Notes under the pieces: model-generated
What the model saw: only the letters and a program-made list of their open reading frames with translations
Told to the model about the DNA's origin: nothing
Database searches by the model: none
In this document: in pieces, positions 35,409 through 57,093 of the stretch
Layout: each line of letters opens with the position of its first letter
How positions within the stretch are numbered: position 1 is the first letter of the stretch
Position numbers and translations under genes: made by a program
Assembly: GCA_026990595.1 (NCBI GenBank)
Contig: JALXCZ010000011.1
Coordinates: 25,312-89,311, forward strand
DNA length: 64,000 nt
From: Sulfurovum sp.
GTDB taxonomy: Bacteria > Campylobacterota > Campylobacteria > Campylobacterales > Sulfurovaceae
Direction: 5' to 3'

Positions 35409-35432
35409 TATAATTAACTAACCAGTTAATTA
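35409..35432 (+). promoter_or_regulatory. -10 box plus probable TetR autoregulatory operator
   Basis: TATAAT overlapping the perfect inverted repeat TAATTAACT-AACC-AGTTAATTA immediately before the tetR RBS. Confidence 0.65.
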
Positions 35433-35444
35433 ATTAGGAGTACT

Positions 35445-38358: not shown

Positions 38359-38361
38359 TAG

Positions 38362-41478: not shown

Positions 41479-42102
41479 TTGAAATTACAGTATGCAGGTC
41501 CAAAACCGATTATATCGCAACATGGTATTTTTTTCAAAAATGGAAAAGAAGATAAATACATCTATCTTAAAATGGCAGTAAATGTATTGCTTGCCATTGA
41601 CAAAGATTACAACAGGCAAGATAAATATGAAACATACATAGAAGATCATACTAATTTGACAGATGAAAGACTTTTGGAAATATCAGCAATATATGAGCCA
41701 AATCTTGAGGAACATGTTGAGAATGAAGAAAAACAGTATGAGAAACATATTGATACAATGATCGAAGAAGTTAAGCATACATTATTTACAGAAGAAGAAA
41801 AATCTATCTGGATAAATAATATCAATATTATGAGACCCTATATGATACAAAGAGAGATAAACAAATTGTATTATATTCATTGTATTAAAGCTATCAAAGA
41901 GATAATACATAAAGAAGGGATCAACGAGATTGATATTGACTTCAGTTTGCAACATTTGCATATTCTGGAATCCATTGCAGGTAATTTGGAATACGGAACA
42001 AAATCAATTCCCACTATGATAAAAATAAATCCTAACAAAGATGGAAGAATGATGGCACGTTTATACATCAATCGACGTGAAGAAAATAGGAAAGAATATT
42101 AA
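41479..42102 (+). CDS. Hypothetical soluble acidic protein
   Basis: 207-aa ORF with AAGGA RBS and TTG start; abuts the next gene. Confidence 0.7.
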   Translation: MKLQYAGPKPIISQHGIFFKNGKEDKYIYLKMAVNVLLAIDKDYNRQDKYETYIEDHTNLTDERLLEISAIYEPNLEEHVENEEKQYEKHIDTMIEEVKHTLFTEEEKSIWINNINIMRPYMIQREINKLYYIHCIKAIKEIIHKEGINEIDIDFSLQHLHILESIAGNLEYGTKSIPTMIKINPNKDGRMMARLYINRREENRKEY

Positions 42103-42851
42103 TGAATAGTTTACAGATGAAAATAAAAGAGTTCTTTACATACGGTGAAAAAGTACCTGGCTATGAGGTACCTGTACTTAATGAAAGAGAAGCGCGTGCT
42201 GCAGCAGCCATTTTGTTCGTGGGTGCTTTTCTGGGGCTGGCGAACGGTGTAATGCTTGGAACAGCTGTCTTTTCCGAATATTTCGTAACCTTCTTTGCGA
42301 TCGATTTCACCATGCGTATCATTCAGCCACGATATGCTCCCAGTCTGATGTTGGGGCGTTTTTTCGTACAGAACCAGAAGCCTGAGTATGTTGGAGCGGC
42401 ACAGAAACGTTTTGCCTGGACATTAGGTTTTATATTGGCATGGCCGATGTTCTACTATCTGGTTATCGATTTTCAGCCCAATCCGCTGAAAGTCCTCGTC
42501 TGTCTCATTTGTATGGCACTGCTCTTTTTTGAAGCGGCCTTTTCCATCTGTCTGGGGTGTAAGATCTTTGGTCTGATCAAAAAACAGGATCCAAAGTATT
42601 GTCCCGGCGGAATATGTGAAATGAATATCAAGGAGCCTATTCAGAGATTTTCTCCGGTTCAGAAAGTGATTCTTGTAATGACTTTTCTTATTATGGGGTA
42701 TGGTACATATGCCTACTTTACCAAACTACCTGATAGAACCATCTTTGTCAAAAAAATGAAAATGCTTATGATGAATCAAGCAGAACTTGATGCCATGACA
42801 AAAGCAAAAGAGAAGGCGGAAGAGGATGCATTTTTTAATGATGATGAGTAA
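42102..42851 (+). CDS. DUF4395 family membrane protein
   Basis: LNEREARAAA, PEYVGAAQKRFAWTLG and FEAAFSICLGCKIF motifs. Confidence 0.75.
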   Translation: MNSLQMKIKEFFTYGEKVPGYEVPVLNEREARAAAAILFVGAFLGLANGVMLGTAVFSEYFVTFFAIDFTMRIIQPRYAPSLMLGRFFVQNQKPEYVGAAQKRFAWTLGFILAWPMFYYLVIDFQPNPLKVLVCLICMALLFFEAAFSICLGCKIFGLIKKQDPKYCPGGICEMNIKEPIQRFSPVQKVILVMTFLIMGYGTYAYFTKLPDRTIFVKKMKMLMMNQAELDAMTKAKEKAEEDAFFNDDE

Positions 42852-42898
42852 TTTAAAAGTTGTTTTTATATATTAAATTATAACCTGAATAATATATA

Positions 42899-42918
42899 AT
42901 ATCAAGATATATTGATAT
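42899..42918 (+). promoter_or_regulatory. ArsR/SmtB-type operator candidate
   Basis: Perfect inverted repeat ATATCAA-GATATA-TTGATAT (contains ATCAA-N6-TTGAT) overlapping a TATAAT, 48 nt upstream of the permease. Confidence 0.55.
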
Positions 42919-42966
42919 GTTAAATTTTTTATGTTATACTCTTGTAATCTTATTAAAAGGGTATGG

Positions 42967-43914
42967 ATGTGGAAAGAAGCAATAGATTACTTAACCTTTG
43001 ATATGCTTGGGCTGACCGGAAGGGTTAACGAGACGGTCAACTTTTTCATTTACGATACGGTCAAGATCCTCTTTTTGCTGATTGTCATCATCTTTGTCGT
43101 CTCCTATTTGAGAACACACTTCAACACGGAGTACGTCAGGGCACATTTGCAGGGCAAGTCTGAGCTTTACGGCAATGTGCTGGCCGCACTCTTCGGCATC
43201 ATTACGCCGTTTTGTTCCTGCTCTGCCATTCCGCTGTTCCTGGGCTTTCTGCAGGCGCGCATCCCGCTGGGGGTGACTTTTTCCTACCTCATCTCTGCGC
43301 CAATGAACAACGAAGTCGCCATCGCGCTGCTCTTTACGCTTTTTGGCTGGAAGATCACGGCGATTTACATCGCTTTCGGGCTCTTTGTGGCGATCGTCGG
43401 AGGATTTGTCATCGGCAGGTTCAACCTTGAAAAGTATGTGCTCATCCCTGTTAAGCCCATCGATACCAAACTCGAAGCTGGAGAAGTGAAGATGAGCGCC
43501 AAAGCACGTGCCAAAGAAGCATGGAACTATACTTGGGATATCTTCAAACAGATTTGGCTCTATGTACTTGTGGGAGTTGGCATCGGTGCATTCATTCACG
43601 GCTATGTGCTTGCGGACTTCATCGCCAAATATGCCGGCGGTGACAACTGGTACGGGGTGCCGCTGGCGGTCATCCTCGGTGTTCCGATGTACTCCAACGC
43701 TGCAGGTGTGATGCCGCTGGTGGAAGTACTGACCCAGAAAGGGATGCTGCTTGGAACAGCGTTGAGTTTCATGATGGCCATCACGGCTCTGAGCCTTCCC
43801 GAAGCGATGATACTGAAAAAAATACTGCATACCAGACTCATAGCGCTCTTTTTCGGTATTGTCAGTGCAGGTATTATTTGTATCGGGTATCTGTTCAACT
43901 ATATTTTAATGTAA
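42967..43914 (+). CDS. DUF318/ArsP-like permease
   Basis: TPFCSCSAIP, SAPMNNE, GVPMYSNAAG and ALSLPE motifs. Start placed at ATG 42967. Confidence 0.88.
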   Translation: MWKEAIDYLTFDMLGLTGRVNETVNFFIYDTVKILFLLIVIIFVVSYLRTHFNTEYVRAHLQGKSELYGNVLAALFGIITPFCSCSAIPLFLGFLQARIPLGVTFSYLISAPMNNEVAIALLFTLFGWKITAIYIAFGLFVAIVGGFVIGRFNLEKYVLIPVKPIDTKLEAGEVKMSAKARAKEAWNYTWDIFKQIWLYVLVGVGIGAFIHGYVLADFIAKYAGGDNWYGVPLAVILGVPMYSNAAGVMPLVEVLTQKGMLLGTALSFMMAITALSLPEAMILKKILHTRLIALFFGIVSAGIICIGYLFNYILM

Positions 43915-43927
43915 AAAAGGAAAAGAA

Positions 43928-44090
43928 ATGGACAGTGAAAAAGAACCGATGTTGAAGACAACCCCTTCTTTACTGCAATTGACCTGGGCTTTTTTTATCA
44001 TCGGATTGACGGCATACAGTGTGGCTATGCTGCAACAGCTAAAACACTTGTTGTAGGCCGAAAATGGCTCTCGCAAAATTCGATTTTATG
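43928..44090 (+). pseudogene. Truncated, frameshifted N-terminal fragment resembling a chromate transporter (ChrA)
   Basis: MDSEKEPMLKTTPSLLQLTWAFFIIGLTAYSVAMLQQLKHLL* (stop 44054-44056). A shifted frame continues VGRKWLSQ, as in the first ChrA helix plus KWLS motif. Confidence 0.55.
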
Positions 44091-44132
44091 ATTTGAAACG
44101 GTGGCATACAGAAAATGAATGAGGAGAAAAAA

Positions 44133-44381
44133 ATGAAAATAGAAATTTTGGGAACGGGATGCACAAAGTGTGTGGCTCTTGAAAAAGTCGTAGAACAGGC
44201 AGTCGCCAAAGTAGGCGGTTTTCACCAGATCGAAAAAGTCGATGACATTATGGAGATCATGAAGTACAATGTGGTTAGTACACCGGGGCTTGTCCTGGAC
44301 GGAAAAGTCGTTTCGACCGGCAAGCTGCTTTCTGTCGAGGAAGTGGTCAAGCTCATAGAGGAAGCACAGAAGCATGCTTAG
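44133..44381 (+). CDS. Small redox-active disulfide protein (MTH895-type thioredoxin family)
   Basis: MKIEILGTGCTKC and STPGLVLDGKV; GAGGAG RBS before ATG 44133. Confidence 0.88.
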   Translation: MKIEILGTGCTKCVALEKVVEQAVAKVGGFHQIEKVDDIMEIMKYNVVSTPGLVLDGKVVSTGKLLSVEEVVKLIEEAQKHA

Positions 44382-45090
44382 GAAAATAGGGCTTGCAGCA
44401 ATGGCGGGTACAGTACTTCTGGCGGCACAGCAGCATCTCAATATTGACGATGCCTTTTATGAAAATGTTGTCAGGAACGCCCCCAACGCACGTCCGGTAT
44501 GGGTGAAAGATACCGACAGTGCGATGGGGCGCTACAACCGCTACCCCAAGCAGCTCGACATCAGGACGCTTGCACGTGCGCACGGGCATCTCTGCGACGG
44601 GCTGGTGCTGGCCTATGTGGAGCTTTCCAACACACTGCCGAAACTCTTTTCTGATGGTGTGATCGACCGGACTGATCTTCGGGTGGTCGCCAAGAACAGC
44701 CCCTGTCTGGTCGACACTTCCGCACTGATGAGCGGTGCGAGAATCAATCACCGGACACTCTCTCTGGACAACAGTCTCGGCGGTGCTTTCATCGTTCAGC
44801 GTATCTCCACAGGGGAAACTTACAGAGTAGAACTGGCTGATAAAAGTTTCATCAGGTCCCTCAAGGCAAAAGAGGCAGAGATCAAAAAGAAGCAGAAAAT
44901 GCACCTGACGGTCACGCCGCAGGATATTGACGAACTGGAAGCACTGGCATTCGAAGCCATGAAACATATGCTCAACACCGATCCGAAAAAATTCCTGAAA
45001 ATCACGAAGCTGAAAAACTATGACTACCGTTTTAACCTGGACGATATCGGATCCCGAAGCGATGTCATCAACAAAAACGTCGGCAGGTAG
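44374..45090 (+). CDS. Exported FmdE-family protein
   Basis: Signal peptide; AHGHLCDG metal motif and NSPCLVD. Confidence 0.78.
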   Translation: MLRKIGLAAMAGTVLLAAQQHLNIDDAFYENVVRNAPNARPVWVKDTDSAMGRYNRYPKQLDIRTLARAHGHLCDGLVLAYVELSNTLPKLFSDGVIDRTDLRVVAKNSPCLVDTSALMSGARINHRTLSLDNSLGGAFIVQRISTGETYRVELADKSFIRSLKAKEAEIKKKQKMHLTVTPQDIDELEALAFEAMKHMLNTDPKKFLKITKLKNYDYRFNLDDIGSRSDVINKNVGR

Positions 45091-45097
45091 AGAGCAC

Positions 45098-45799
45098 ATG
45101 CAGCCGTTCATTACCCATTTGCTTGAGTCCAATTCCTGGCTGGTCTTTGCAGGAGCGTTCTTCTCCGGCAGCATTACGGCTGCGGCTCCCTGTTCACTGG
45201 TAGCGGTACCGTTGCTTGTAGGAAGTGCGGTTGCCCTGAACAAAGACCTTGAAGGCAGAAAAAAAGTGCTCTATACCTACGCGTTCACAGCACTTTTTGC
45301 TTTAGGTGTAGCGGTAAGCTTTTCCATTTTGGGGCTGGTCGTGGCAAAGTTCGGAGGCTTTTTCTCCATTGCACCGCTGTGGGCCTACCTTACCGCCGGT
45401 ACGCTGAGCATTCTCATCGCTCTGTATGCCTTCGGCTATTTGGGAGAGGTCGATAAATCGGCTATCATCCACAGGCTAATACGCTACAGACTTTTCGGCG
45501 GTTTACTCATCGGTCTGATCTTCGGACTGGTCAGTACACCCTGTGCCTCGGCACCGCTTTTTGCCATTGTCTCTCTGGCGGGAAGCAGCGGGTATTTGTA
45601 TGCTTATGGGCTTATTCTACTTTTTGCATTGGGTCATTCTCTATTACTTCTTGCTGCAGGTGTTTCGGTTGGATTTGCGCAAAGCATCACTTCAAGTAGC
45701 ACTATGGTAAAAATTTCGGACTGGCTTAACAAGGGGTTTGCCCTTTTGTTAATCGGGTTTGGAATTTACTTTTTCTATGAAGCTTATGTACAGCTTTAG
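45098..45799 (+). CDS. ccdA: CcdA/DsbD-type transmembrane thiol-disulfide electron transporter
   Basis: AAAPCSL and VSTPCASAPL conserved Pro-Cys pair; about 6 TM. Start placed at ATG 45098. Confidence 0.82.
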   Translation: MQPFITHLLESNSWLVFAGAFFSGSITAAAPCSLVAVPLLVGSAVALNKDLEGRKKVLYTYAFTALFALGVAVSFSILGLVVAKFGGFFSIAPLWAYLTAGTLSILIALYAFGYLGEVDKSAIIHRLIRYRLFGGLLIGLIFGLVSTPCASAPLFAIVSLAGSSGYLYAYGLILLFALGHSLLLLAAGVSVGFAQSITSSSTMVKISDWLNKGFALLLIGFGIYFFYEAYVQL

Positions 45800-45904: not shown

Positions 45905-45934
45905 TATAATTAACTAACCAGTTGGTTAATTATA
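45905..45934 (+). promoter_or_regulatory. -10 box plus TetR-like operator
   Basis: TATAATTAAC-TAACCAGTTG-GTTAATTATA inverted repeat. The first 19 bp are identical to 35409-35427. Confidence 0.6.
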
Positions 45935-45960: not shown

Positions 45961-46848
45961 ATGAGTGGTCATCACCATAAAGTAAGCGGTAAGAACCTTT
46001 TCTGGACAATCGTTCTTAATATAATTATCACCCTCTCGCAGATCGTAGGAGGGATCATCTCTGGGTCGTTGGCACTGCTGAGTGATGCGATGCACAACTT
46101 CAGTGATGTGCTTGCGCTCGTCATTGCGTATGCTGCCAACCGTATGGCGGCACGCCCCAATGATGTGCAGCGGACATTTGGCTACAAACGTGCCGAGATT
46201 CTCGCCGCACTCTTTAACGCTTCGGTGCTCATCGGTATTGCTGTGTTTCTTATTGTCGAAGCATTCCACAAGTTCTACCATCCCGAACCCATCAACTCGG
46301 TATGGGTCATAGTACTTGGTGCACTTAGTATCGTGCTCAATACAGCAAGTGTCCTACTTATCAAAGAGGATTCACATGAGAGTATGAACGTCAAAGCCGC
46401 CTATCTGCACCTACTGACCGATGTGATGACCTCCATTGCCGTTGTGCTTGGTGGTGTACTGATGTACTACTTCGGTATTTTCTGGATTGATCCGCTCATC
46501 TCTGCGCTTATAGCGCTATATCTCATATGGGCATCGTTCGGGCTGGTGAAAGAGAGTAGTGCAATTTTGATGCAGTTCACACCGGAGGGCATTGATATAA
46601 ATCATATTGTTGATAGTATTGAAGCAGAGCCGGAGATTGAAAATGTCCATCATATCCACATTTGGAAACTGGATGACCACCAGATAAACCTTGAAGCACA
46701 TTTGGATTTTTGTGAAGATGTCACACTCTCTGTATCAAATGCTGTGATTGATAGAATTGAGAAAAAATTACATGATACCTTTGAAATTGAACATATCACA
46801 TTTCAATGTGAGTACAACAGAGATGATAAAAAAGAAATCATAATTTAA
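45961..46848 (+). CDS. Cation diffusion facilitator (CzcD-like Zn/Co/Cd exporter)
   Basis: SLALLSDAMHNFSD, TFGYKRAE, AYLHLLTD and HHIHIW motifs. Confidence 0.93.
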   Translation: MSGHHHKVSGKNLFWTIVLNIIITLSQIVGGIISGSLALLSDAMHNFSDVLALVIAYAANRMAARPNDVQRTFGYKRAEILAALFNASVLIGIAVFLIVEAFHKFYHPEPINSVWVIVLGALSIVLNTASVLLIKEDSHESMNVKAAYLHLLTDVMTSIAVVLGGVLMYYFGIFWIDPLISALIALYLIWASFGLVKESSAILMQFTPEGIDINHIVDSIEAEPEIENVHHIHIWKLDDHQINLEAHLDFCEDVTLSVSNAVIDRIEKKLHDTFEIEHITFQCEYNRDDKKEIII

Positions 46849-46857
46849 AGGAATCAT

Positions 46858-47682
46858 ATGAAAAAAAAGATTGTATTAACATTCATAATAACAGTGTTCA
46901 GTATGGCTGGGGAATATCCTCAGGGAAAATTGGGAGAGGTGGTAAAACTTGGAGAAGATATAGTCAATCATACCGATACCAATACTCTCTCTAAGCCATA
47001 TGTACGTAGCCAACTGCAATGTTCAAATTGTCATAGAAAAAAAGGTGCAGACAGCAGAGCTGGAACAGCAAAGACCATTGGTACATTTGTAGGAACATCT
47101 ACCTCTTTTCCTGCCTACTCGAAACGACATAAAGATATTATCAGCCTGCAAAACAGGATTGATGGTTGTTTTTTACGATGTATGAATGGTACAAAATCGG
47201 TGGTTAATACAAAGGTGGGGATTGCTGTAGAGAGTTATATTACCTGGCTTTCAACGGGTATGCCGGTAAAAATGAGTTCAAAAGCTCCACGAACACCTTT
47301 AAAAATAGAGATGTGGAGCAAAAGCAGAAAGAAGTTTATTGCTTTGTTTAAAAAAACAACCCATCAAAATTATCTGAGTGGCAAGGCACTTTATGTCAAA
47401 GAGTGTGCTTCTTGTCATGGGGATGATGGTCAGGGAAAAGGCACTTTCCCTCCACTATGGGGGAGTACAAGTTACACGGCTGATGGAAGTATGGCAAAAC
47501 TTCCTAATGCTGCTACATGGATTGAGGATAATATGCCACTGAACAATACACATCTTACAGACCAACAGACTGCTGATATTACCCTGTATATCAATGCACA
47601 GCCTAGACCGGAGTATAGAGGCTTTAAGGTAGAGGACAATTTTAAAAAATTGGGTCTTGACTTGGAAAAAATAAAAAATTAA
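46858..47682 (+). CDS. tsdA: Diheme c-type cytochrome, TsdA (thiosulfate dehydrogenase/tetrathionate reductase)-like
   Basis: Signal peptide; CSNCH and CASCH heme sites; RIDGCFLRCMNG (TsdA RxxxCFxRSMNG), PPLWG and NMP. Confidence 0.7.
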   Translation: MKKKIVLTFIITVFSMAGEYPQGKLGEVVKLGEDIVNHTDTNTLSKPYVRSQLQCSNCHRKKGADSRAGTAKTIGTFVGTSTSFPAYSKRHKDIISLQNRIDGCFLRCMNGTKSVVNTKVGIAVESYITWLSTGMPVKMSSKAPRTPLKIEMWSKSRKKFIALFKKTTHQNYLSGKALYVKECASCHGDDGQGKGTFPPLWGSTSYTADGSMAKLPNAATWIEDNMPLNNTHLTDQQTADITLYINAQPRPEYRGFKVEDNFKKLGLDLEKIKN

Positions 47683-47693
47683 TAAGGAACACA

Positions 47694-48083
47694 ATGAAAG
47701 AAGTAGATTTTGATACATATTTAAAAAGTTTTGATTACGATGAACGTCAAAAAATGAAGATACAGATGCCTGAACTCTTTGAGCTCTATGCCAAAGGTGA
47801 AGCACAGGTGATAGATATCCGTTTTGATGAAGAGTATGAAGCGTGGCATATCGGATTTGGAGATCACATTCCTCTCAATGAACTTCCGAACAGACTGGAT
47901 GAAATAGACAAAAACAAGACTATTGTTACCATGTGCCCGCACTATGACAGGGCAGAGATCGCACGGCTGTTTTTGAAACTCAAAGGTTACAATGCCCGCT
48001 ATCTTACAGACGGAATGTTAAAAGTTGTGGATTATCTCCGAGGAGATAAAGCCAGAGATTATATGAATAAAATTAAAGGATAA
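47694..48083 (+). CDS. Single-domain rhodanese (sulfurtransferase)
   Basis: IDIR...HI...IP and active-site loop CPHYDR. Confidence 0.85.
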   Translation: MKEVDFDTYLKSFDYDERQKMKIQMPELFELYAKGEAQVIDIRFDEEYEAWHIGFGDHIPLNELPNRLDEIDKNKTIVTMCPHYDRAEIARLFLKLKGYNARYLTDGMLKVVDYLRGDKARDYMNKIKG

Positions 48084-48086
48084 AAA

Positions 48087-49049
48087 ATGCAAAGACGTAA
48101 TTTTCTTAAAGGTGCTGCATTGGCAGCAGGTTCCATGGCTATTTTGCCTACGATAGTTAATGCGAGTATAGTTAAACCAGCAAAAGGTGAAAAAATTCCT
48201 TCAGGAGCAGTAACGCTTTATATAGAATGTCGTATTTTACCTAAATTTAAAAATGATTTATTGCAAAAAATAAATGAATATACAAAAGTGCTCAATAAGA
48301 AAAAAGGATTTTTATCGCTTTCTCTTAAAAATATGGTGGGTGATTCAACAATGGTACACAATTACCCTACAGCCTTAAAAGGTGTCTTAAGTTCTGCCTA
48401 TTTTGATGCAAGTAAAGAGGGGAGTATGCCATTATTTTATTCTCTTTTTATTCGTTTTGAGAATTATCAAGATTTGATGGCATCGAAAACAACACAATGG
48501 TTTGCAAAAGTTATTGCAAAATATGGAACACTCAGCAAAAATTACCATGAGGGTGTTTATAAAACTGTTGCAGCGGGTGATAGAGAACATATATATACAA
48601 CACAAGCAGAGATACAAAAGTTCTTAAAAAATCAAAAAGATAAACCTACAAACAGATACCTGACAGTAAATAATCATGTTGGTATTTTTACAAAGGATGC
48701 CAAGATATTTAATCAAAAAAGTACATCACTTTTAAAAGTTGCCCAAAATACTTTTCGTCCTGCAAAAGGAGATTATGATTATAATCCAAAATTTCCGGTA
48801 GGAATCCCAGGCTCTTATCAAAACTTGCATTATAGAAAAGCCATTGCAACAGAAATTTTACAAAGTGCTTTTTCCGATGGAGATAAAACACATTACTTGT
48901 TCCATGGTGTTTGGGAGAGTCTTTATGACCATGAAAACTCCCATATTGATCCTCGTTTTAGAGCAGATGTGATGAAAATTTTTCCATATATTATTGATGG
49001 ACCAGTTGAACCATTTTATGAAACTATTATTTTAAATAATCATATTTAG
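48087..49049 (+). CDS. Tat-exported protein with two alpha/beta-barrel-type halves, sulfur oxygenase reductase (SOR)-like
   Basis: RRNFLK Tat motif. C-terminal WESLYDHENSH...IIDGPVEPFYETI resembles the SOR iron-binding region WKDWKDHEEMH...MIWGPWEPIYEII. Confidence 0.65.
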   Translation: MQRRNFLKGAALAAGSMAILPTIVNASIVKPAKGEKIPSGAVTLYIECRILPKFKNDLLQKINEYTKVLNKKKGFLSLSLKNMVGDSTMVHNYPTALKGVLSSAYFDASKEGSMPLFYSLFIRFENYQDLMASKTTQWFAKVIAKYGTLSKNYHEGVYKTVAAGDREHIYTTQAEIQKFLKNQKDKPTNRYLTVNNHVGIFTKDAKIFNQKSTSLLKVAQNTFRPAKGDYDYNPKFPVGIPGSYQNLHYRKAIATEILQSAFSDGDKTHYLFHGVWESLYDHENSHIDPRFRADVMKIFPYIIDGPVEPFYETIILNNHI

Positions 49050-49129
49050 TAGATATATAATTGATACAAAAGATTATTAGTAGTGATAAATAGAGACCAT
49101 ATAAAAATTCGAAATTAAAGGATAAGCTA

Positions 49130-49492
49130 ATGCAAAATTTTATAAAAAATGTAATCCCAAGTGAAATGAGTACTATGCGTATTGAGCTTGATGAGTTTAT
49201 TGAACTCTATAATGAGGGGAAATGTGAACTTGTCGATGTACGCGTAGCGATGGAGATAAAGGTATGGCAGGTGAATTTTGGTTTGAAAATCCCTGCACCA
49301 GAGCTTCCTGATCGTCTGGATGAACTACCCAAAGATAAGCTCCTTGTTGTAGCTTGTCCTAAAAATGACAGATCCAATATGGCAAGGACATGGCTTGCTG
49401 CACAGGGATATAATGTAAAATATCTCAGTGGTGGTCTTTTGGGGCTTATGGATTATCTTAAAGGTGGTAAAGCAAAAGCTTTAAAGGTATAG
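49130..49492 (+). CDS. Single-domain rhodanese (paralog of 47694)
   Basis: VDVR, ELPDRLDELPKDK and active-site loop CPKNDR. Confidence 0.85.
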   Translation: MQNFIKNVIPSEMSTMRIELDEFIELYNEGKCELVDVRVAMEIKVWQVNFGLKIPAPELPDRLDELPKDKLLVVACPKNDRSNMARTWLAAQGYNVKYLSGGLLGLMDYLKGGKAKALKV

Positions 49493-49494
49493 GC

Positions 49495-50247
49495 ATGAGC
49501 CCTGAACTCATACATTATACCATCTACTTTTTTCTCACACTTGGGCTCTCGACACTCTTTTCAATGGGTGGAGTTGGTTCGGCTATTGGGCTTGTACCTA
49601 TCTTTTCTATGATGGGAATGCCTATCAATTTGGCAAAAGCCATTGGGCTTTTTATTAACTCTGCTTCTACGATCACTGCTTCATTTATGAACTTCTTTCG
49701 TGGGGTTTTAGATATAAAATTCGCCATCCCGCTTATCATTTCGATTATGATCGCCACGCCTATAGGGGCATGGATGAGCCAGTATGTACAAAAAGAGGTG
49801 GTCGAGTGGATACTGGTGGTATTTTTGCTTGTCAGTGCCGTGCTGCTGCTCTTTAGCAACCGCGAAACGAAAGTAGTGTATGACAAAGCATGGGTGCTGT
49901 ATGTCATTGGTTCTGTAGTAGGGCTTATCTCTGGAACAATCGGTGTAGGCGGAGGATCGCTAATTATGCCGCTGCTTATTCTGCTCGGTTTCGATGCGAA
50001 AAAAGCAGCCTATGCCATCAGCTTCGTGATTCCGTTCTCAACACTGGGTGCCTTTGCAACATATCTTTCGTTTGTAGATATGGACTGGGTACTGCTTGGT
50101 GTGGTCACGATTGCTGCCATTATCGGCGGGTATGTGGGTGATTTTATCATGCATTACCGTCTGACACCGCAGCAGGTGAAAAAACTCATTGCAGTTGTAC
50201 TGTTGTTGCTGAGCGTAAAAATGATATACAAACTTTTAGGAGTATAA
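49495..50247 (+). CDS. Sulfite exporter TauE/SafE family protein
   Basis: MGGVGSAIGLVP and the repeat GTIGVGGGSLIMP; about 8 TM. Confidence 0.87.
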   Translation: MSPELIHYTIYFFLTLGLSTLFSMGGVGSAIGLVPIFSMMGMPINLAKAIGLFINSASTITASFMNFFRGVLDIKFAIPLIISIMIATPIGAWMSQYVQKEVVEWILVVFLLVSAVLLLFSNRETKVVYDKAWVLYVIGSVVGLISGTIGVGGGSLIMPLLILLGFDAKKAAYAISFVIPFSTLGAFATYLSFVDMDWVLLGVVTIAAIIGGYVGDFIMHYRLTPQQVKKLIAVVLLLLSVKMIYKLLGV

Positions 50248-50248
50248 A

Positions 50249-50494
50249 ATGGTACATATTATGAAAAAAATAGCAGACTGGATTGTGGAAAATGAAAAGA
50301 AAGAGGCGACAGACTGCTCCATTCCTGATGAAGTTATTGATGAGTGGCTAGAGACTATAAAAGAGCATAAAACGCATATTCATACAAAAGATGCATCTCA
50401 TCCTCAGCAGCTTGAAATGTTAGAAGATCTTGAAAAAAAAGTTAAAGAAATTGAAGATATTCGTAAGAAAAAGTGTCACACAAACATCAAATGA
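50249..50494 (+). CDS. Small hypothetical helical protein
   Basis: 81-aa ORF tightly packed between tauE and the porin gene. Confidence 0.6.
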   Translation: MVHIMKKIADWIVENEKKEATDCSIPDEVIDEWLETIKEHKTHIHTKDASHPQQLEMLEDLEKKVKEIEDIRKKKCHTNIK

Positions 50495-51810
50495 AAAAAA
50501 GAGTAAGTATTTTTTTTCTGCTATCTATATCATCACATAGTCTCTTCGCTAAAGATTTTTCTTTGATAGGAGATATAAGAGAGCGTTTTGAAACACTTGA
50601 TGGTATGAATAAAAAAGCCTATGGAAATACAGCATTACTTATAGGCAATCCAAATGACAGGCTTCTTGTCAGTCGTATGCAGCTTGGATTTGGTTATCAG
50701 GTATCTTCTACAGTCAAACTTAATGTGCTGGGATATTATGCAAGTGTTTATGGATGGTCACTCAGATATAACGATTTTAGAAAGATAAGTGGGTATAAAA
50801 ATTACATGATAGATCCGCAGGAGGATCTTGATTTTGCTAAATTGAATATAGAAGTTCAAACACTTTTTGGTATTCACGGGCTTTCAACCAAGATCGGGCG
50901 ACAGTCAAATCGTTATGGAGATAAACGTATTTTGGGCCCTGGAAACTGGGGGAACTCGTATGGATGGCTGTGGGATCTTGCCAAAGTATCTTACAAATTT
51001 GATGACAATTTCATTGATGTGTTCTACGGTCAGACAAAAGACAAAGACAAGCACCGTCTCTCTTTGTTCAGAAAGCATGTTTATGCGGGAGCAGGTATAT
51101 ATTCACACTTTAAAACAGAGGCAAACGGAGCCATAGAACCGTTTGTCATTTATAAAGATGGTTTATATACAGGAGTGGGTAACGGACAAAATACGGAAAA
51201 GAGCTATACTTATGGTGTAAGAGCCTACGATACCGACCTTTTTTGTTTTAATTACGATCTTACGTATGCAAAAGCAGACGGGACCATCAAAACAAAGGAT
51301 TATGATGCCTACGGCTATGCGGCGAAGATCGGATATCGGTTCAAGTCTGTTGCCTGGAAGCCGAATTTCGTTGTTGGGCAGATCTATGCCAGTGGGGATG
51401 ATGATCCTAATGATAACATTGTCAAAACCTTCCGAACACCGTTCGGCGGTACGGACGGTTCTCTGTACGGACGTATGGATATCATGAGATGGAGCAACCT
51501 TGTCGAAAATGTGCTTGAGCTGCATCTTTATCCGAAGGAAAATATGCACCTGAAACTTTCTTACCATGATTTTTCACTGTCAGATGCTAACGATGCATGG
51601 ACGTATTATAAAAAATACAATATCAACGGAAACCATGATGATGAATTGGGACAAGAGTATGATGTCGAATTCAAGTGGAAATATGCAAAAGATTTGGAGT
51701 TTCAAGCTATTTATGCCTACTTTGATGCCGGTGCTTTTGTGACAAAGAATGTCTTGGACAATAATGCCCAAAGAGTATTTTTACAGGTTAAATATACTTT
51801 AAAAAATTAA
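50491..51810 (+). CDS. Alginate-export-family outer membrane beta-barrel porin
   Basis: Signal peptide from ATG 50491; GDIRERFE, IGRQ...YGDKRILG, YASGDDDP and terminal FLQVKYTL. Confidence 0.8.
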   Translation: MKKRVSIFFLLSISSHSLFAKDFSLIGDIRERFETLDGMNKKAYGNTALLIGNPNDRLLVSRMQLGFGYQVSSTVKLNVLGYYASVYGWSLRYNDFRKISGYKNYMIDPQEDLDFAKLNIEVQTLFGIHGLSTKIGRQSNRYGDKRILGPGNWGNSYGWLWDLAKVSYKFDDNFIDVFYGQTKDKDKHRLSLFRKHVYAGAGIYSHFKTEANGAIEPFVIYKDGLYTGVGNGQNTEKSYTYGVRAYDTDLFCFNYDLTYAKADGTIKTKDYDAYGYAAKIGYRFKSVAWKPNFVVGQIYASGDDDPNDNIVKTFRTPFGGTDGSLYGRMDIMRWSNLVENVLELHLYPKENMHLKLSYHDFSLSDANDAWTYYKKYNINGNHDDELGQEYDVEFKWKYAKDLEFQAIYAYFDAGAFVTKNVLDNNAQRVFLQVKYTLKN

Positions 51811-51843: not shown

Positions 51844-52167
51844 ATGCAGGATATACTCACTTTCAATACATTTATCACACAGGATGTATTGATATTTTTT
51901 TATTATATCGGCGCGGTGCTTATGCCTGTTGTCTTGTATGTGTTCAAAGATTACCTAATAGCACATCTCTCTTTTGTAAAAAAGATCAATGATAAACTGC
52001 ATACGTTTTACGCTTCTTTCTCTTCCAATGGAAAAATCATCTTTTGGATGATGTTCTCCACCATGTTTTTGTGTATGGAACTGTGTTGGCGTATGATGTT
52101 TGAAGCGATGATAGGATATTTTGATATACATGAATACCTTTATCAGATTACTAAGCAGATAAAATAG
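51844..52167 (+). CDS. DUF4282-like membrane protein
   Basis: DILTFNTFIT...FFYYIG and ELCWRMMFE patterns. Confidence 0.6.
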   Translation: MQDILTFNTFITQDVLIFFYYIGAVLMPVVLYVFKDYLIAHLSFVKKINDKLHTFYASFSSNGKIIFWMMFSTMFLCMELCWRMMFEAMIGYFDIHEYLYQITKQIK

Positions 52168-52181
52168 ACAGGAAAAAAATA

Positions 52182-52565
52182 ATGAAAAAAATAGTTGTAT
52201 TAGTTATTGTTTTACTTACCTACAATCTTTATGCCGCCGATAGACCGATGTTGCAAGAGACAGCTTTTGCGGAAGTCTCAAAACAGATAGGTACAGGCAA
52301 AGCCATATTTCTTGAAGTGGGTTCCGACAGCTGTCGAAGCTGTCGGGTCATGGGGAAACTGCTCTACACGGTCAGACAGGAACATCCGGCATACCCCATC
52401 TACTTTGTCAATGTTAAAAAGGAGCGAGAAGCCGCTTTCAAACTGAAAATACAGATGATCCCGACACAGATCGTACTTGACGGTAAAGGCAGAGAAGTTT
52501 TCCGACATGTCGGTATCTTGAGCCCGGATGAATTGAATGCCCTTCTGGAGAAATATATACAATGA
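52182..52565 (+). CDS. Exported thioredoxin-family protein
   Basis: Signal peptide; CRSC CxxC motif; cis-Pro motif IPTQ. Confidence 0.85.
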   Translation: MKKIVVLVIVLLTYNLYAADRPMLQETAFAEVSKQIGTGKAIFLEVGSDSCRSCRVMGKLLYTVRQEHPAYPIYFVNVKKEREAAFKLKIQMIPTQIVLDGKGREVFRHVGILSPDELNALLEKYIQ

Positions 52566-52879
52566 TGAATGAAGCCTGTCACAGCATGCAGCACGGCGAA
52601 GTACTCAATGCAGAAAAAACGGAATATCCGTTTTTTCATGCTGTACTCTACGGAGACAAAGTTTCAACGGCAAAGTTTTCCAAACGGCTGAGCTGTGCTA
52701 TCAAACACTTGCCTTTGCGTGTAGAATTCAGATATGAATATGACACATTGAAAGCAGTTGAAAAAGGTGTGATGAAAGACCCGACACTGGTACTAGATGG
52801 AGAGATATTTCTCGAAGGACTTGTACAGGCTGAAAGCATAACAGAAGCATTTGAAAAAGTGCTTCTAGAGAAGGAGTAG
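52562..52879 (+). CDS. MTH895-like thioredoxin-fold protein lacking CxxC
   Basis: DPTLVLDGEIFLEG matches TPGLVLDGKVVSTG of the 44133 protein. Confidence 0.6.
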   Translation: MMNEACHSMQHGEVLNAEKTEYPFFHAVLYGDKVSTAKFSKRLSCAIKHLPLRVEFRYEYDTLKAVEKGVMKDPTLVLDGEIFLEGLVQAESITEAFEKVLLEKE

Positions 52880-52880
52880 T

Positions 52881-53459
52881 ATGTTAACAAAATTTATGCA
52901 AAGAGAAAACCGTTTTATACACAGTGAAAAAATGGCTTTTCTTATTTTGCCTATGGTGTTGATACCATTACTTCTGGAACTGGCATTACATAGTATAAAA
53001 CCTGAATGGTTTGCCTTGCACCGTGAGCAGATACTCATTGCAAATATTCTTTATATTGTCATCGCCCGTTTTGCTATGCTTGATACGGCAGTCTATATTT
53101 TCAGTCGTACAAAGAATCATGTACACCTTGCGTTGGTACAAATTGTACTTCTTTATTTGGAAGTTACTGTGATAACTATTGTGTACTATGCCGCTGTATT
53201 TAACATATTTGATGTTTTTTCCCTTTTTCACTTGAGTGCACAGTTTAGCCCCCAAAATCTTACTGCCATTCATGAACATAGTTTTGTTACTTCTATGTAT
53301 ATCTCAACTGTGACCTTTACTACATTAGGTTCAGGAGACTGGATACCCCAGACGCTTCCGGCCATGATTGCAGTTATCTCTGAAGTTATCTTGGGTGTGG
53401 TACAGGGTGGTGTTTTTGTTGCTATTGTTATTTATGCACATCAAAATAAAGGTAAGTAA
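52881..53459 (+). CDS. Potassium channel (pore-loop) family membrane protein
   Basis: Pore helix and filter YISTVTFTTLGSGD followed by an inner helix. Confidence 0.75.
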   Translation: MLTKFMQRENRFIHSEKMAFLILPMVLIPLLLELALHSIKPEWFALHREQILIANILYIVIARFAMLDTAVYIFSRTKNHVHLALVQIVLLYLEVTVITIVYYAAVFNIFDVFSLFHLSAQFSPQNLTAIHEHSFVTSMYISTVTFTTLGSGDWIPQTLPAMIAVISEVILGVVQGGVFVAIVIYAHQNKGK

Positions 53460-53485
53460 TGGTAGATAATAAATTCATATTAAGT

Positions 53486-53504
53486 TCATATTGCAGCAGT
53501 ATGA
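53486..53504. promoter_or_regulatory. Candidate operator upstream of the second TolC operon
   Basis: TCATATTGC-A-GCAGTATGA, a 9-bp inverted repeat with one mismatch. Confidence 0.3.
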
Positions 53505-53533
53505 TTTCACTAGAAATTCTATAAAGGGATGAT

Positions 53534-54808
53534 TTGAAATATATGGTAAAACAATATTTAAAAAAATCGGTACTTCTTTTATCTCTGTTGGGTATGCAAG
53601 AGCTATATGCCCATACACTGACACTGCGAACAGCCATAGACAGTACGTTGGCACATCATCCGGATGTAAAAACATTTATACTACGCATACAGCAGGCAGA
53701 GCAGGGTTATAATGCAGCCTATGCCGACTATCTTCCTCAAGTTGATCTTTCGGCTACGTATGCTCCAACGCAAACATTTGCGCTTCCTGTTAACGGTAGT
53801 TTTCATACAGTGAATGAAAGAAGCTTGCATGCCGGAGTTACTCTGCATCAGAAAGTATGGGATTTTTCCAAGACTTCTTCCCTTGTTGATGCGAGCAAGA
53901 TAGATACAGATATTGCCAAACTTTCACTGGATGAGGTAAAAGCACTGTTAGGCTATAAAGTGAAATCACTTTATGCACTTCTGGTTGTGCAGCGTGAAGC
54001 GATTGTTGTCAGAAGCCAAGACCTTAAAGCAAAAAAAGCATTCTATGCACAGGCAAAGGCGTTAGTCAAACAGGGGCTTAAGACCCATGCTGATGCCAAC
54101 CGCTTTCTCTCTGCTGTGTATGCAGCAAAAGACAGTCTTGCTATCGCCAGAGCCGCTTTTGAAAAAGCAAAGATCTCTCTTTCTCTCTATATGGGCAGAG
54201 AGATCCATACTTCTGTTAAACTCCAAAGCAAAGCCTTGAAGCAGAAATACACAGTACATAAAAATACGGAACGCAAAGTGCTTGCACATAATTACAAAGT
54301 GAAAAAAGATCGACTGAATATCCATAAGAACCGTTTGCTACACAAGTCTGCGAAATCTGCACATTTCGGGAGTATTGACCTTGTCGCATCTTATGACCGT
54401 TTTGATACTCTGAACCAATATAACTCCGATTATGTAGGGGTGAATTACAATGTCTCTCTTTATAGCGGAGGAAGATTGGGTGCACTGGAGCAGAAAGCAC
54501 ATATAGCTACAATGATCGCACAGGAGCAGGAAGCTTCAGATACCTTGGCACTGAAAGAAGAGTTGCGTGCCTTGTTGACAGATATTAAACGTTACAGTCA
54601 AACGATCAGGGCAAAAAAAGTACAGGTAACTTCAGCAAAAAGTGCACAAAGAGAGTTGAGGGCACGATATAAAGAGGGATTGGCTACATATATAGAAGTA
54701 CTGGATAGTACTTCAGCTGTATTAAATGCACAATTGGGTGTATTGGAAGCCTATTATTCCCGTAGTTTGGCTATAGATAGAATTGAATATTTAAAAGGAA
54801 AGATCTAA
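53534..54808 (+). CDS. TolC-family outer membrane protein
   Basis: Signal peptide; DYLPQVDLSA, VSLYSGG and RYKEGLATYIEVLD OEP motifs. Confidence 0.88.
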   Translation: MKYMVKQYLKKSVLLLSLLGMQELYAHTLTLRTAIDSTLAHHPDVKTFILRIQQAEQGYNAAYADYLPQVDLSATYAPTQTFALPVNGSFHTVNERSLHAGVTLHQKVWDFSKTSSLVDASKIDTDIAKLSLDEVKALLGYKVKSLYALLVVQREAIVVRSQDLKAKKAFYAQAKALVKQGLKTHADANRFLSAVYAAKDSLAIARAAFEKAKISLSLYMGREIHTSVKLQSKALKQKYTVHKNTERKVLAHNYKVKKDRLNIHKNRLLHKSAKSAHFGSIDLVASYDRFDTLNQYNSDYVGVNYNVSLYSGGRLGALEQKAHIATMIAQEQEASDTLALKEELRALLTDIKRYSQTIRAKKVQVTSAKSAQRELRARYKEGLATYIEVLDSTSAVLNAQLGVLEAYYSRSLAIDRIEYLKGKI

Positions 54809-55947
54809 TGCAAAAATTATTGAAGTATATGCTTGTTGCTGTGTTGCTTTTATTGGGGGGAATACTTTTTTATAAAAAAATATACATTCCCAAAAGCACT
54901 TATGAGACAGCTATTTCCAAAAAAGGTGATCTCTCTGTTGAAGTGTTTGGCATTGGGAATGTGGGAGCAAAGTACATATACAGTATTACCGCACAGACCG
55001 GAGGAAAAATACTTTCTATTTTGACTGATGAAGGGAAATGGGTTAAAAAAGGAGATCTGCTGATCACCATAGACAGTGTAGATATTCCTCAGCTTATTGA
55101 TGAAGCAAACCTATCTATGCGAAAATCCAATTTGGAATGGGTTGCAAGCAAGAAAGAGTTGAAGAGCCTCTTTGCACAGAAACACTTGGCACAGATCACC
55201 TATGACCGCTATGTAAAGCTTAAAAAACAGTCGTTTGTATCCAAAGCAGAGTATGACAAAGCCAAAGCTGATCTTGATGTGATCGAAGCACAAATATCAG
55301 TAACAAATGCACATATTAGATCAGCCAAAATGGAAGTAGAAAGAACACAAAAAGCAGTAGAAGCCCTCAAGCAAAAACTTGCACGCTATAAGATATATGC
55401 ACCAGTTGACGGAGTTGTTATCGCACGTAGTGCCCAGGTAGCACAGACCGTACTGCCTTCACAGCCTATTTTAAAAATTGTGGATCCCAAAGATGTATGG
55501 GTCAATGCATACATAGATGAAAAGATAAGTGGCAGTGTCAAAGTAGGAGAAAAAGCGAATATTACCTTGCGTTCTCAATATGAAAAATATTTCAAAGGTA
55601 CTGTAAAAAGGATCGTTGCACAGAGTGATGCTGTAACCCAGGAGAGAGAAGTAAATGTAGCTTTTGACACCTTACCCATGCCATTTTACATCAATGAACA
55701 GGCAGAAGTGCGTATTGCTTCGAAGACCTATAAAGATGTGGTTAAAGTACCACTGAAGGCTTTGGCTTACTATAAAGAAAAAACAGGTGTCTGGACAGAG
55801 GACTCTGGGAAAGCACATTTTGTACCGGTAAAAGTACTGGGCAGAGGACATAGTGAGGCTGCAATAACAGGATTAGCTAACCATACTAAAATATTGATTG
55901 GTTCAGAAAAGAAAAAACCCCTTAAAGAGGGTGTGGACGTACACTGA
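54808..55947 (+). CDS. Periplasmic adaptor (MacA-like)
   Basis: N-terminal TM; GKWVKKGDLL and IYAPVDGVV motifs. Confidence 0.87.
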   Translation: MQKLLKYMLVAVLLLLGGILFYKKIYIPKSTYETAISKKGDLSVEVFGIGNVGAKYIYSITAQTGGKILSILTDEGKWVKKGDLLITIDSVDIPQLIDEANLSMRKSNLEWVASKKELKSLFAQKHLAQITYDRYVKLKKQSFVSKAEYDKAKADLDVIEAQISVTNAHIRSAKMEVERTQKAVEALKQKLARYKIYAPVDGVVIARSAQVAQTVLPSQPILKIVDPKDVWVNAYIDEKISGSVKVGEKANITLRSQYEKYFKGTVKRIVAQSDAVTQEREVNVAFDTLPMPFYINEQAEVRIASKTYKDVVKVPLKALAYYKEKTGVWTEDSGKAHFVPVKVLGRGHSEAAITGLANHTKILIGSEKKKPLKEGVDVH

Positions 55948-57092
55948 TGATCAATCTTGCCAAAAAAGATATTGCCCATACACTAGGAAAGTTTATTGTG
56001 ACTTCCATGGGGGTTGGAATGCTTTTGGGTATTGTGCTCATTATGATCGGTGTTTACAGGGGAATGATCATTGATGCCAAGGTTCTTTTGGATGATCTCA
56101 AAATTGACCTCTGGGTAGTACAGGAAAATACACTCGGACCCTTTGCCGAGCCTTCACGGCTGCATGAAGATCTTAAAAATACTATTAAAGCTACAGATGG
56201 AGTTGCAAAATCAGAAGGACTGACCTTTCAAAATCTGCAATTGCCTCTAAACGGGAGTGAAGTGAGGGTTTTTGCTGTCGGGTTTGATCCTTTTGGTGAG
56301 ATCGACCCTGTCAACAAGGAAAGACTTGTTGAGGGCAGAGGATTGCAGCGTAGTCACTATGAAATGGTTGTTACAGATAAAACAGGTTTCAAGCTTGGTG
56401 AAAAAGTACTGTTGGGAAGAGATCTTTATAGGGTTGTAGGTATCACACACGGTACGGTTTCATCGGGAGGTGATCCTTTAGTGTATCTAAGTCTAAAAGA
56501 TGCACAGGAGTTGCAGTTTCTTTATTCAAATTCACGGACAAGAAATGACAGGGAAAGAGGTATAAAAGCATTGAATTCACATATGATCAATGCTGTTGTT
56601 GCAACAGTCAAAAAAGGTTACAACGTGGATCATGTAGCCAATGAAATACGGCAATGGAAACATAAAAGTGTCTATACTGCAAAGGAAGAGAAAACACTTC
56701 TGACAAAAAATCTCATCAAGATGGCTTCCAAACAGATTGGGATGTTTACCGTGATACTGGTGGTGGTATCGACGATTATTATTGCACTTATTATTTATAC
56801 AATGACGTTGGAAAAGATCAAAGAAATTGCTATTATGAAGCTGATTGGCTTACCCAACAGTATGATCATTAAAATGATCGTACAGGAGACACTGCTTATG
56901 GGAGTATTGGCATTCATGTTTGCTAATATCTTTGCCCATCTCATCTACAGCAAATTTCCAAAGCGGGTAGTGTTGGAGATGCCCGATGCATGGATGCTCT
57001 TTGTTGTTGTGATCGCCGCTTCTATTCTTGCTTCGCTGGCAGGTATTCGTAAAGTGATCAAAGCTGATCCCGCATCGGCAATAGGAGGCTGA
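55947..57092 (+). CDS. ABC transporter permease (MacB/FtsX-like)
   Basis: One TM, a periplasmic domain, then three TM; EKIKEIAIMKLIG motif. Confidence 0.87.
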   Translation: MINLAKKDIAHTLGKFIVTSMGVGMLLGIVLIMIGVYRGMIIDAKVLLDDLKIDLWVVQENTLGPFAEPSRLHEDLKNTIKATDGVAKSEGLTFQNLQLPLNGSEVRVFAVGFDPFGEIDPVNKERLVEGRGLQRSHYEMVVTDKTGFKLGEKVLLGRDLYRVVGITHGTVSSGGDPLVYLSLKDAQELQFLYSNSRTRNDRERGIKALNSHMINAVVATVKKGYNVDHVANEIRQWKHKSVYTAKEEKTLLTKNLIKMASKQIGMFTVILVVVSTIIIALIIYTMTLEKIKEIAIMKLIGLPNSMIIKMIVQETLLMGVLAFMFANIFAHLIYSKFPKRVVLEMPDAWMLFVVVIAASILASLAGIRKVIKADPASAIGG

Positions 57093-57093
57093 T

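Follow-up and report, generated by a model that had tools for sequence, protein, structure and literature searches.

We analyzed a 64,000-nucleotide stretch of DNA from Sulfurovum sp. (GenBank assembly GCA_026990595.1, contig JALXCZ010000011.1, positions 25,312 to 89,311 of the forward strand), hereafter the window, and focused on eight genes at window positions 45961 to 51810. One of these genes encodes an exported protein of the CT0912-like family that resembles sulfur oxygenase reductase (SOR), which we refer to as the SOR-like protein. An original prediction, made from the DNA letters, had described eight co-directional genes with gaps of 9, 11, 3, 80, 2, and 1 nucleotides (nt) followed by an overlap, and the plus-strand open reading frames (ORFs) agree with that description. 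Its family calls (CDF, TsdA, two rhodaneses, TauE, and an AlgE-type porin) were borne out by family and PDB matches. In order, the genes are:

45961-46848, plus strand: CDF divalent-cation exporter, 295 amino acids (aa; TIGR01297, 258 bits against a cut-off of 82)
46858-47682, plus strand: TsdA-type diheme cytochrome c with a Sec signal, 274 aa, a lineage-specific member of the operon
47694-48083, plus strand: rhodanese 1 (Rhd1), single domain, no signal peptide, 129 aa, loop C-P-H-Y-D-R
48087-49049, plus strand: SOR-like (CT0912-like) protein, exported by the twin-arginine (Tat) system, 320 aa (PF21931 and PF22087)
49130-49492, plus strand: rhodanese 2 (Rhd2), single domain, no signal peptide, 120 aa, loop C-P-K-N-D-R
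49495-50247, plus strand: inner-membrane anion permease of the TauE/TSUP family, 250 aa (PF01925, 137 bits)
50249-50494, plus strand: charged 81-aa protein lacking a signal peptide and without a family match
50491-51810, plus strand: Alginate_exp-type outer-membrane beta-barrel porin (120 bits), start revised from the listed ORF (50473-51810, 445 aa)

ATG 50491 is the more likely start of the porin, giving an ATGA 4-nt overlap with the 81-aa gene and a signal peptide (MKKRVSIFFLL); a near-identical assembly has the porin called as 439 aa, in agreement with this start. A search for terminator-like sites within the eight-gene cluster found none between genes. The CDF also matched ZT_dimer (PF16916, 46.6 bits), and the names ZitB and DmeF were rejected, as it scored under both equivalog cut-offs. 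The two rhodaneses matched PF00581 at 47 and 34 bits, and their six-residue loop, C-P-x-x-D-R, was invariant across eight orthologs of both paralogs; GlpE and PspE were rejected for either one, again on scores under the cut-offs. The TauE match (136.7 bits) covered model positions 2-237 of 237, and the protein was 90-96% identical in relatives.

The SOR-like protein belongs to the CT0912-like family, with matches to PF21931 (ABM-like) and PF22087 (CT0912-like_C) at 156 and 291 bits (cut-offs 27). These two domains and the Tat signal were its only matches, and identity with the Pfam SOR family (PF07682) was rejected. Among known structures, it matched CT0912 of Chlorobaculum tepidum (PDB 3GN6) at E 8e-57 with 40% identity and Foldseek TM scores of 0.84-0.91; 3GN6 is a structural-genomics entry from 2009 whose deposited name says ORFan. 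We built an AlphaFold model of the SOR-like protein from 32 homologs (pLDDT 89.7). Foldseek searches against the PDB placed SORs right after CT0912 (2cb2 from Acidianus ambivalens, 6qpa from Halothiobacillus neapolitanus, and others; TM 0.59-0.60, E 1e-10, matching along the full length in ~340 alignment columns), and tandem ABM monooxygenases ranked after the SORs, with TM scores of ~0.5. SOR and the SOR-like protein share a plan of two ferredoxin-like alpha+beta-barrel domains per chain (TM 0.60).

When all PDB sequences were searched with a family profile, the only matches were CT0912 and nine SORs, the latter at E 0.056-0.68. In the profile alignment, the family stretch HGvWesvyDHEnsH...GPvEPFYe falls on the A. 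ambivalens SOR stretch FWKDWKDHEEMH...GPWEPIYE. The shared block is W-x5-D-H-E-x-x-H...G-P-x-E-P-x-Y-E, with D-H-E-E-M-H and G-P-W-E-P-I-Y-E as its SOR counterpart, and by this alignment it corresponds to what we take to be the SOR iron ligands H86, H90, and E114 together with the adjacent, second-sphere E87. An E87D mutant SOR entry was among the profile matches, consistent with the H86/E87/H90/E114 numbering. Four residues of the SOR-like protein, H282, E283, H286, and E308, were invariant in 32 diverse family members, and H282, H286, and E308 form a candidate 2-His-1-carboxylate iron site.

The differences from SOR are also clear. A weak second segment aligned the N-terminal domain of the family to SOR residues 159-205, and the iron-site block is C-terminal; the domain order is therefore swapped relative to SOR, in which the iron-site domain is N-terminal. 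No cysteine is conserved in the CT0912-like family (the window protein has a single Cys, C48, and most relatives have Phe at that position), so the cysteines regarded as essential for SOR chemistry are missing: the active-site (persulfide) cysteine and two others conserved in SOR. Identity to SOR is ~11%. Finally, SOR is a cytoplasmic enzyme assembled as a sphere of 24 subunits, whereas the SOR-like protein has a Tat signal and is predicted to be periplasmic. We conclude that the protein is CT0912-like and a remote, permuted, exported relative of SOR, and we reject membership in the canonical SOR family. The SOR-like label of the original prediction thus holds for the fold and the iron-ligand motif, but not for a Pfam SOR match or for the cysteines.

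The CT0912-like family is small and tightly conserved. In a search of 1.84 billion proteins, the matching sequences fell into 49 clusters (50% identity), and no relative outside the family was found at E 0.001. A literature search returned nothing on CT0912 by name, nor on "SOR-like" together with Sulfurimonas, and the literature that joins SOR with the terms twin-arginine and periplasmic concerns, by its titles and abstracts, Sulfobacillus, Cupriavidus, and Acidithiobacillia. Every domain family at this locus is already known, and the CT0912 structure has been solved. We found no account in the searchable literature of the SOR iron-site match with swapped domains and no cysteines, of the Tat export, of the recurrent CT0912-like gene neighborhood, or of the shared TetR operator described below, and we regard these as new.

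Genes of this family recur with overlapping sets of partners. We took a census of neighbors at 101 loci (80 of them found via a metagenome scan), in which all ORFs were translated and clustered and loci were dereplicated at 90% identity, giving 69 groups, 36 with at least 4 kb of flank. The commonest partner of the SOR-like gene was CDF (16 of the 69 groups), followed by the ArsE-type thioredoxin Trx3 (13), AhpD/CMD-like proteins (12), the ArsP permease and a second thioredoxin-like protein (11 each), membrane-fusion protein (MFP; 10), rhodanese (9), and TauE (8). Lower counts were obtained for DsbD-TM, DUF4282, periplasmic thioredoxin, RND, FmdE, MacB, and DUF2202, and also for OsmC, VIT1, peroxiredoxin, MerR, ArsC, and P-type ATPase. 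The close relatives of the window locus are metagenome-assembled genomes labeled Sulfurovum, Sulfurimonas, and Nitratifractor, and one contig from the same sample is tagged hydrothermal vent metagenome.

In all three of these genera, the SOR-like gene, Rhd1, Rhd2, TauE, the 81-aa gene, the porin, and CDF were found together. The usual order in relatives is SOR-like, (CDF), Rhd1, Rhd2, TauE, small gene, porin, with the 81-aa gene coming after TauE in each genus. Because most of the eight-gene set is found again in other genera, the gene order is more than chance. The arrangement nonetheless varies among relatives. Of two complete genomes, that of Sulfurimonas autotrophica has porin, CDF, VIT1, SOR-like, NhaP, Rhd, FmdE, Rhd, TauE, and two small genes. 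That of Nitratifractor salsuginis has TetR, outer-membrane factor (OMF), MFP, RND, a few further genes, Rhd, Rhd, DUF4282, SOR-like, TauE, small, ChrA, and CDF, and, further along, CMD, DsbD-TM, and Trx. One same-genus genome lacks the SOR-like gene and has TetR, OMF, MFP, RND, DUF4395, CDF, Rhd1, Rhd2, TauE, small, porin, and DUF4282; the SOR-like gene is dispensable to the cluster.

Partners were also shared by more divergent family members. At locus L074, the cassette of Rhd1 (89% identical), Rhd2 (82%), TauE (90%), and the small gene directly follows a SOR-like gene only 42% identical to that of the window. On contigs with a GC content of 56-63%, SOR-like genes are joined by CDF, an Rhd1-like gene (66% identical), TauE, ArsP, and Trx3. 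We interpret the same partners beside the divergent L074 gene and on GC-rich contigs as functional linkage and not merely shared descent. The conserved functional set is the Tat-exported SOR homolog, two cytoplasmic rhodaneses, the TauE permease, the 81-aa protein, the AlgE-type porin, and CDF. Its companions are RND and MacB pumps, an ArsP-type permease and the thioredoxin-like protein paired with it, and DsbD-TM paired with a thioredoxin. The original prediction had proposed surveying the neighborhoods of the SOR-like gene for TsdA, rhodanese, TauE, and porin. Linkage with the last three does recur, but linkage with TsdA does not, and CDF and efflux partners are commoner. The family itself is rare and patchy: it was present in 9 of 401 Campylobacterota genomes and in 2 of 400 Gammaproteobacteria genomes, counting the Thiothrix genome that was used as a center. 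Of the seven genomes of the window's genus in the Campylobacterota sample, the window's own was the sole carrier.

The eight genes lie within a longer run of plus-strand genes that contains two copies of a promoter-like palindromic element. Its features outside the eight genes are:

35409-35433, plus strand: operator copy 1, TATAAT plus a 20-bp palindrome (TTAACTAACCAGTTAATTAA), 12 nt before the tetR start
35445-41469, plus strand: tetR (35445-36086), outer-membrane factor (36083-37348), membrane-fusion protein (37345-38358), and RND pump (38362-41469), assigned by Pfam
41479-45799, plus strand: 207-aa hypothetical protein, DUF4395, ArsP_1 permease (42931-43914), MTH895/ArsE-type thioredoxin-like protein (44115-44381), FmdE (44374-45090), and DsbD-TM (ending at 45799), all found again next to CT0912-like genes in many lineages
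45905-45929, plus strand: operator copy 2, TATAAT plus the palindrome TTAACTAACCAGTTGGTTAA, 32 nt before the CDF start
51844-57798, plus strand: DUF4282 membrane protein, periplasmic thioredoxin, thioredoxin-3-like protein, ion-channel protein, and TolC-HlyD-MacB-ABC efflux genes, co-linear in relatives

The 2.05-Mb genome contains the 14-nt operator core in two places and no others, the promoters of tetR and of CDF. Relatives have an identical element 6-56 nt ahead of CT0912-like, CDF, or rhodanese genes. At least ten loci have it before the SOR-like gene, and it also precedes an outer-membrane protein gene and, in S. autotrophica, the first of the rhodaneses. The sequence pattern is that of a TetR regulon, in that the palindrome stands at the promoters of both tetR's own operon and a putative target operon. 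Copy 2 is likely the promoter and operator of the eight-gene operon, and a probable TetR regulon comprises the RND pump, CDF, the SOR-like gene, and the rhodanese-TauE cassette. Given the single operator copy before CDF, the genes for CDF, TsdA, Rhd1, and the SOR-like protein, and probably the rest, would be on one transcript. The sole sizeable gap in the operon, 80 nt at 49050-49129, contains TATATAATTGATAC, a faint echo of the TATAAT-plus-operator element and possibly an internal promoter that drives Rhd2, TauE, the 81-aa gene, and the porin. At loci L002, L004, L012, and L041, a gene for a ~325-aa outer-membrane protein lies just upstream of the SOR-like gene, and in L012 and L041 that gene has its own operator copy.

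The TetR protein (35445-36086) has a C-terminal Cys-x-x-Cys (T-C-A-E-C) and three more cysteines. All are kept in a same-genus ortholog, and the C-terminal Cys-x-x-Cys is missing from the Nitratifractor TetR. These cysteines could be a site for redox, persulfide, or metal sensing.

The unit exceeds the eight genes of the original prediction, extending from the TetR-RND operon through the MacB-type pump, with ArsP, thioredoxins, FmdE, and DsbD-TM between. The TetR-RND block also sits directly upstream of the module in N. salsuginis and in a same-genus genome. We considered whether the genes form no functional unit and are an accidental pile-up of accessory genes in a variable region. Differences in gene content and order among relatives are what such a pile-up would leave, as is the mosaic base composition of the island, where GC swings between 0.32 and 0.52. 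The tight spacing with overlapping stop and start codons points the other way, as do an operator found only twice in the genome yet conserved before the same gene families in other genomes, and the presence of those families around divergent CT0912-like genes in unrelated GC-rich lineages. We consider an accidental grouping very improbable. The GC step at 43000-45500 (ArsP, thioredoxin, FmdE, and DsbD-TM; 0.46-0.52 versus 0.32-0.42 in flanking genes) suggests that the island was assembled from pieces of differing origin.

The cytochrome encoded by the second gene is a genuine TsdA-type protein, with its activity predicted from the following features. It matched structures of Allochromatium TsdA (PDB 4wq7) at E 2e-30 and has two CxxCH motifs (CSNCH and CASCH) and a hydrophobic N-terminus. 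As in the TsdA proteins of Allochromatium and Campylobacter, the Cys ligand of heme 1 and the Met of heme 2 are kept: RIDGCF aligns with RIGDCF of Allochromatium TsdA at the axial Cys of heme 1, and D-N-M-P aligns with H-K-M-P at heme 2. The Asn before the heme 2 Met is also found in Campylobacter jejuni TsdA.

TsdA was beside the SOR-like gene in no other lineage examined, and the TsdA-containing arrangement was seen again only in the near-identical assembly. Among the eight other carrier genomes, one had a close TsdA homolog, on a contig other than that of the SOR-like gene, and homologs 82%, 74%, and 65% identical stand singly amid housekeeping genes. A TsdA 85% identical to the window's occurs in a related but differently arranged island (locus L125, 166-8982), in the order RND (86% identical to the window's), HD, NhaP, Trx3b, TsdA, 75-aa gene, Pyr_redox, and ion channel. 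We conclude that TsdA is a variable passenger, added locally, and not a fixed part of the module. Elsewhere in the window's own genome, a second TsdA paralog (45% identical) lies on contig C32 (17.8-27.9 kb), ~8 kb from homologs of soxY, soxZ, and soxA. Contig C44 has a further soxY homolog, and contig C4 has a second TauE (44% identical).

In Acidianus, the action of SOR is followed by thiosulfate oxidation to tetrathionate, and in this species an SOR-type enzyme and a thiosulfate/tetrathionate enzyme likewise occur together. The Acidianus likeness stops there, since the pairing in the window is limited to this species and the same TsdA clade is elsewhere unlinked or otherwise arranged. The original prediction had proposed a complete route across both membranes, and an energy-yielding dissimilatory pathway independent of Sox and Sqr would take this form: entry through the porin, periplasmic oxidation by the SOR-like protein and TsdA, transport of the product by TauE, and sulfur carriage by the rhodaneses. 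The predicted cellular locations of the parts fit such a pathway, and the fold and iron-ligand motif of the SOR-like protein resemble SOR. TsdA lies within the same operon in this species, CT0912-like genes adjoin soxYZAX in Thiothrix, and archaeal SOR pathways hand thiosulfate to a thiosulfate-oxidizing enzyme.

However, TsdA adjoins the SOR-like gene in this species only, its close homologs stand alone, and no other electron-transfer partner is encoded. The SOR reaction does not itself conserve energy. The partners that recur most constantly are efflux and thiol-redox genes, and a same-genus genome keeps the cluster without the SOR-like gene. The family occurs in 9 of 401 genomes of the phylum and in one of the seven sampled from the genus; this patchiness, together with the sox genes and second TsdA of the window's own genome, makes a self-contained dissimilatory pathway unlikely. 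We judge the dissimilatory explanation distinctly unlikely, and the proposal of a self-contained route distinct from Sox and Sqr is not supported. The broader idea of a route across both membranes survives in part, as a conserved and probably co-regulated set does span the outer membrane to the cytoplasm, but TsdA is not conserved in that set and the route leaves CDF unexplained.

A different explanation is that this is a metal or metalloid resistance island without sulfur catalysis. The CT0912-like protein would be periplasmic and would bind a metal or oxidize a metal or metalloid, the rhodaneses and thioredoxins would handle metalloids by means of thiols, and TauE would be an unrelated anion permease. 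In Sulfurimonas sp. HSL1-2 (locus L021, 6316-9227), the CT0912-like gene is inside an ars cluster, in the order arsR, arsC, arsP, CT0912-like gene, thioredoxin, and in a cyanobacterium it adjoins MerR, thioredoxin, and ArsP. The ArsP_1 and MTH895/ArsE genes upstream in the island resemble an ars-type permease/thioredoxin pair, and such pairs occur near CT0912-like genes in many lineages; unlike in an ars operon, neither arsR nor arsC was found in the window region examined. CDF, ArsP, Trx3, MerR, P-type ATPase, and VIT1 are frequent neighbors, and the invariant His, Glu, and Asp residues could make a metal-binding site. A permease and a thioredoxin that may correspond to those of the window were induced together with arsC, as a trio, by Cd and Cu in Nitratiruptor SB155-2 (PMC10092412).

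Other evidence speaks for sulfur. The motif match is specific to the catalytic iron site of SOR, with the second-sphere Glu included, and both rhodaneses keep a CX4R loop, the length typical of sulfurtransferases, whereas CX5R is the loop of arsenate reductases. Known carriers are mostly sulfur oxidizers or dwellers in sulfidic habitats (Chlorobaculum, Thiothrix, and vent Campylobacterota). The two signals meet in Thiothrix winogradskyi (locus L018, 6876-9996), where three tandem CT0912-like paralogs have an ars/ACR3/gapdh-MFS arsenic cluster on one side and porin, soxYZAX, rhodanese, metallo-beta-lactamase, and YeeE-type genes on the other; this context is the strongest link to sulfur. On balance, we think that metal or metalloid resistance free of sulfur catalysis is unlikely, but a serious competitor of the reading we favor.

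We favor, with moderate confidence and no more, the reading that a mosaic island of ~22 kb (35.4-57.8 kb), horizontally mobile and probably under TetR control, has the eight genes as its central operon. The island would protect the cell and keep homeostasis under stress from reactive sulfur and metals, and would not be the main energy-yielding route of sulfur oxidation. A protective or homeostatic role is favored over a dissimilatory pathway because the constant partners of the sulfur-handling core are exporters and thiol-redox proteins and this core is an accessory trait in a genome that has Sox. Under this protective role, a TetR-family repressor would probably control the island via the shared palindromic operator. 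Under microoxic conditions, the periplasmic iron enzyme would turn zero-valent or sulfane sulfur (candidate substrates are polysulfide, dissolved S0, and carrier-bound persulfide) into soluble oxyanions such as sulfite or thiosulfate. TauE would transport an oxyanion of this kind through the inner membrane, to be handled in the cytoplasm by the rhodaneses. CDF and the pumps would expel the thiophilic metals that accompany sulfide at vents. The TsdA copy, joined to the operon in this species, would interconvert thiosulfate and tetrathionate.

The nearest functional parallel that we considered is the cst operon of Staphylococcus aureus, in which CstR controls tauE, cstA, cstB, and sqr for sulfide and persulfide detoxification. 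Both systems are repressor-controlled and join a TauE-family permease to rhodanese-type sulfurtransferases for reactive sulfur. The module differs in having a TetR regulator, compared with the CsoR-type regulator of cst, and in adding a periplasmic SOR homolog, a porin, CDF, and efflux pumps. Identity with a cst-type operon was rejected, as no Lactamase_B (persulfide dioxygenase) or SQR-type gene was present among the island genes at 35.4-57.8 kb.

Several points weigh against the protective reading, or against the sulfur chemistry within it. Similarity of the SOR-like protein to SOR is marginal in sequence (E 0.056-0.68) and depends on one motif block plus the fold. The absence of the SOR cysteines is an objection to SOR-type oxygenase chemistry, and the occurrence of the family in Chlorobaculum tepidum, a strict anaerobe, fits an obligate oxygenase poorly. 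We infer the binding of TetR to the palindrome from sequence. Many neighborhoods, including those with an ars operon, MerR, or a P-type ATPase, are just as compatible with a role confined to metals or metalloids.

A literature lead in favor of the protective reading comes from Sulfurovum indicum, where a pair of adjacent rhodaneses, the hypothetical gene next to them, and an RND efflux operon were up 2.4-2.8-fold on S0 versus thiosulfate (PMC10045233, Table S2). The rhodanese pair may correspond to that of the module; a search for Rhd1 homologs in the single-contig same-genus genomes of our sample found none at E 1e-10.

We also put forward, tentatively, a bolder proposal that we consider rather unlikely. 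CT0912-like proteins may be a new class of periplasmic, cysteine-independent, SOR-type non-heme-iron sulfur oxygenases that, with the rhodaneses, TauE, porin, and CDF, make up a TetR-switched system for oxidizing zero-valent or sulfane sulfur outside the cytoplasm. If the sulfur-oxygenase reading is true, it would mean an unrecognized route of S0 and polysulfide turnover in vent Campylobacterota, green sulfur bacteria, Thiothrix, and some cyanobacteria. If the CT0912-like protein is merely a metal-stress factor, the gain is a modest one in annotation.

Neutrophilic sulfur oxidizers have to activate zero-valent sulfur and deal with it outside the cytoplasm, and an exported SOR relative with the putative iron site and without the cysteines would be a concrete, testable candidate enzyme for that step. 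It also provides a first functional lead for the 2009 CT0912 structure. The shared operator defines a small, probable regulon that ties sulfur-handling genes to metal export and efflux, and this regulon could show how vent bacteria cope jointly with sulfide and thiophilic metals.

Two minor points concern the genes between the RND pump and the operon. The best NCBIfam match of the ArsP_1 permease was SaoE, and both SaoE and SO_0444 were rejected as its identity, with scores under the equivalog cut-offs (far under for SaoE); in the literature, the name SaoE led to nothing but a selenoprotein preprint. The FmdE ORF, which ends at 45090, and the listed DsbD-TM ORF, which starts at 45020, overlap by 71 nt; as DsbD-TM is 233 aa in the near-identical assembly, its true start is probably downstream of 45090.

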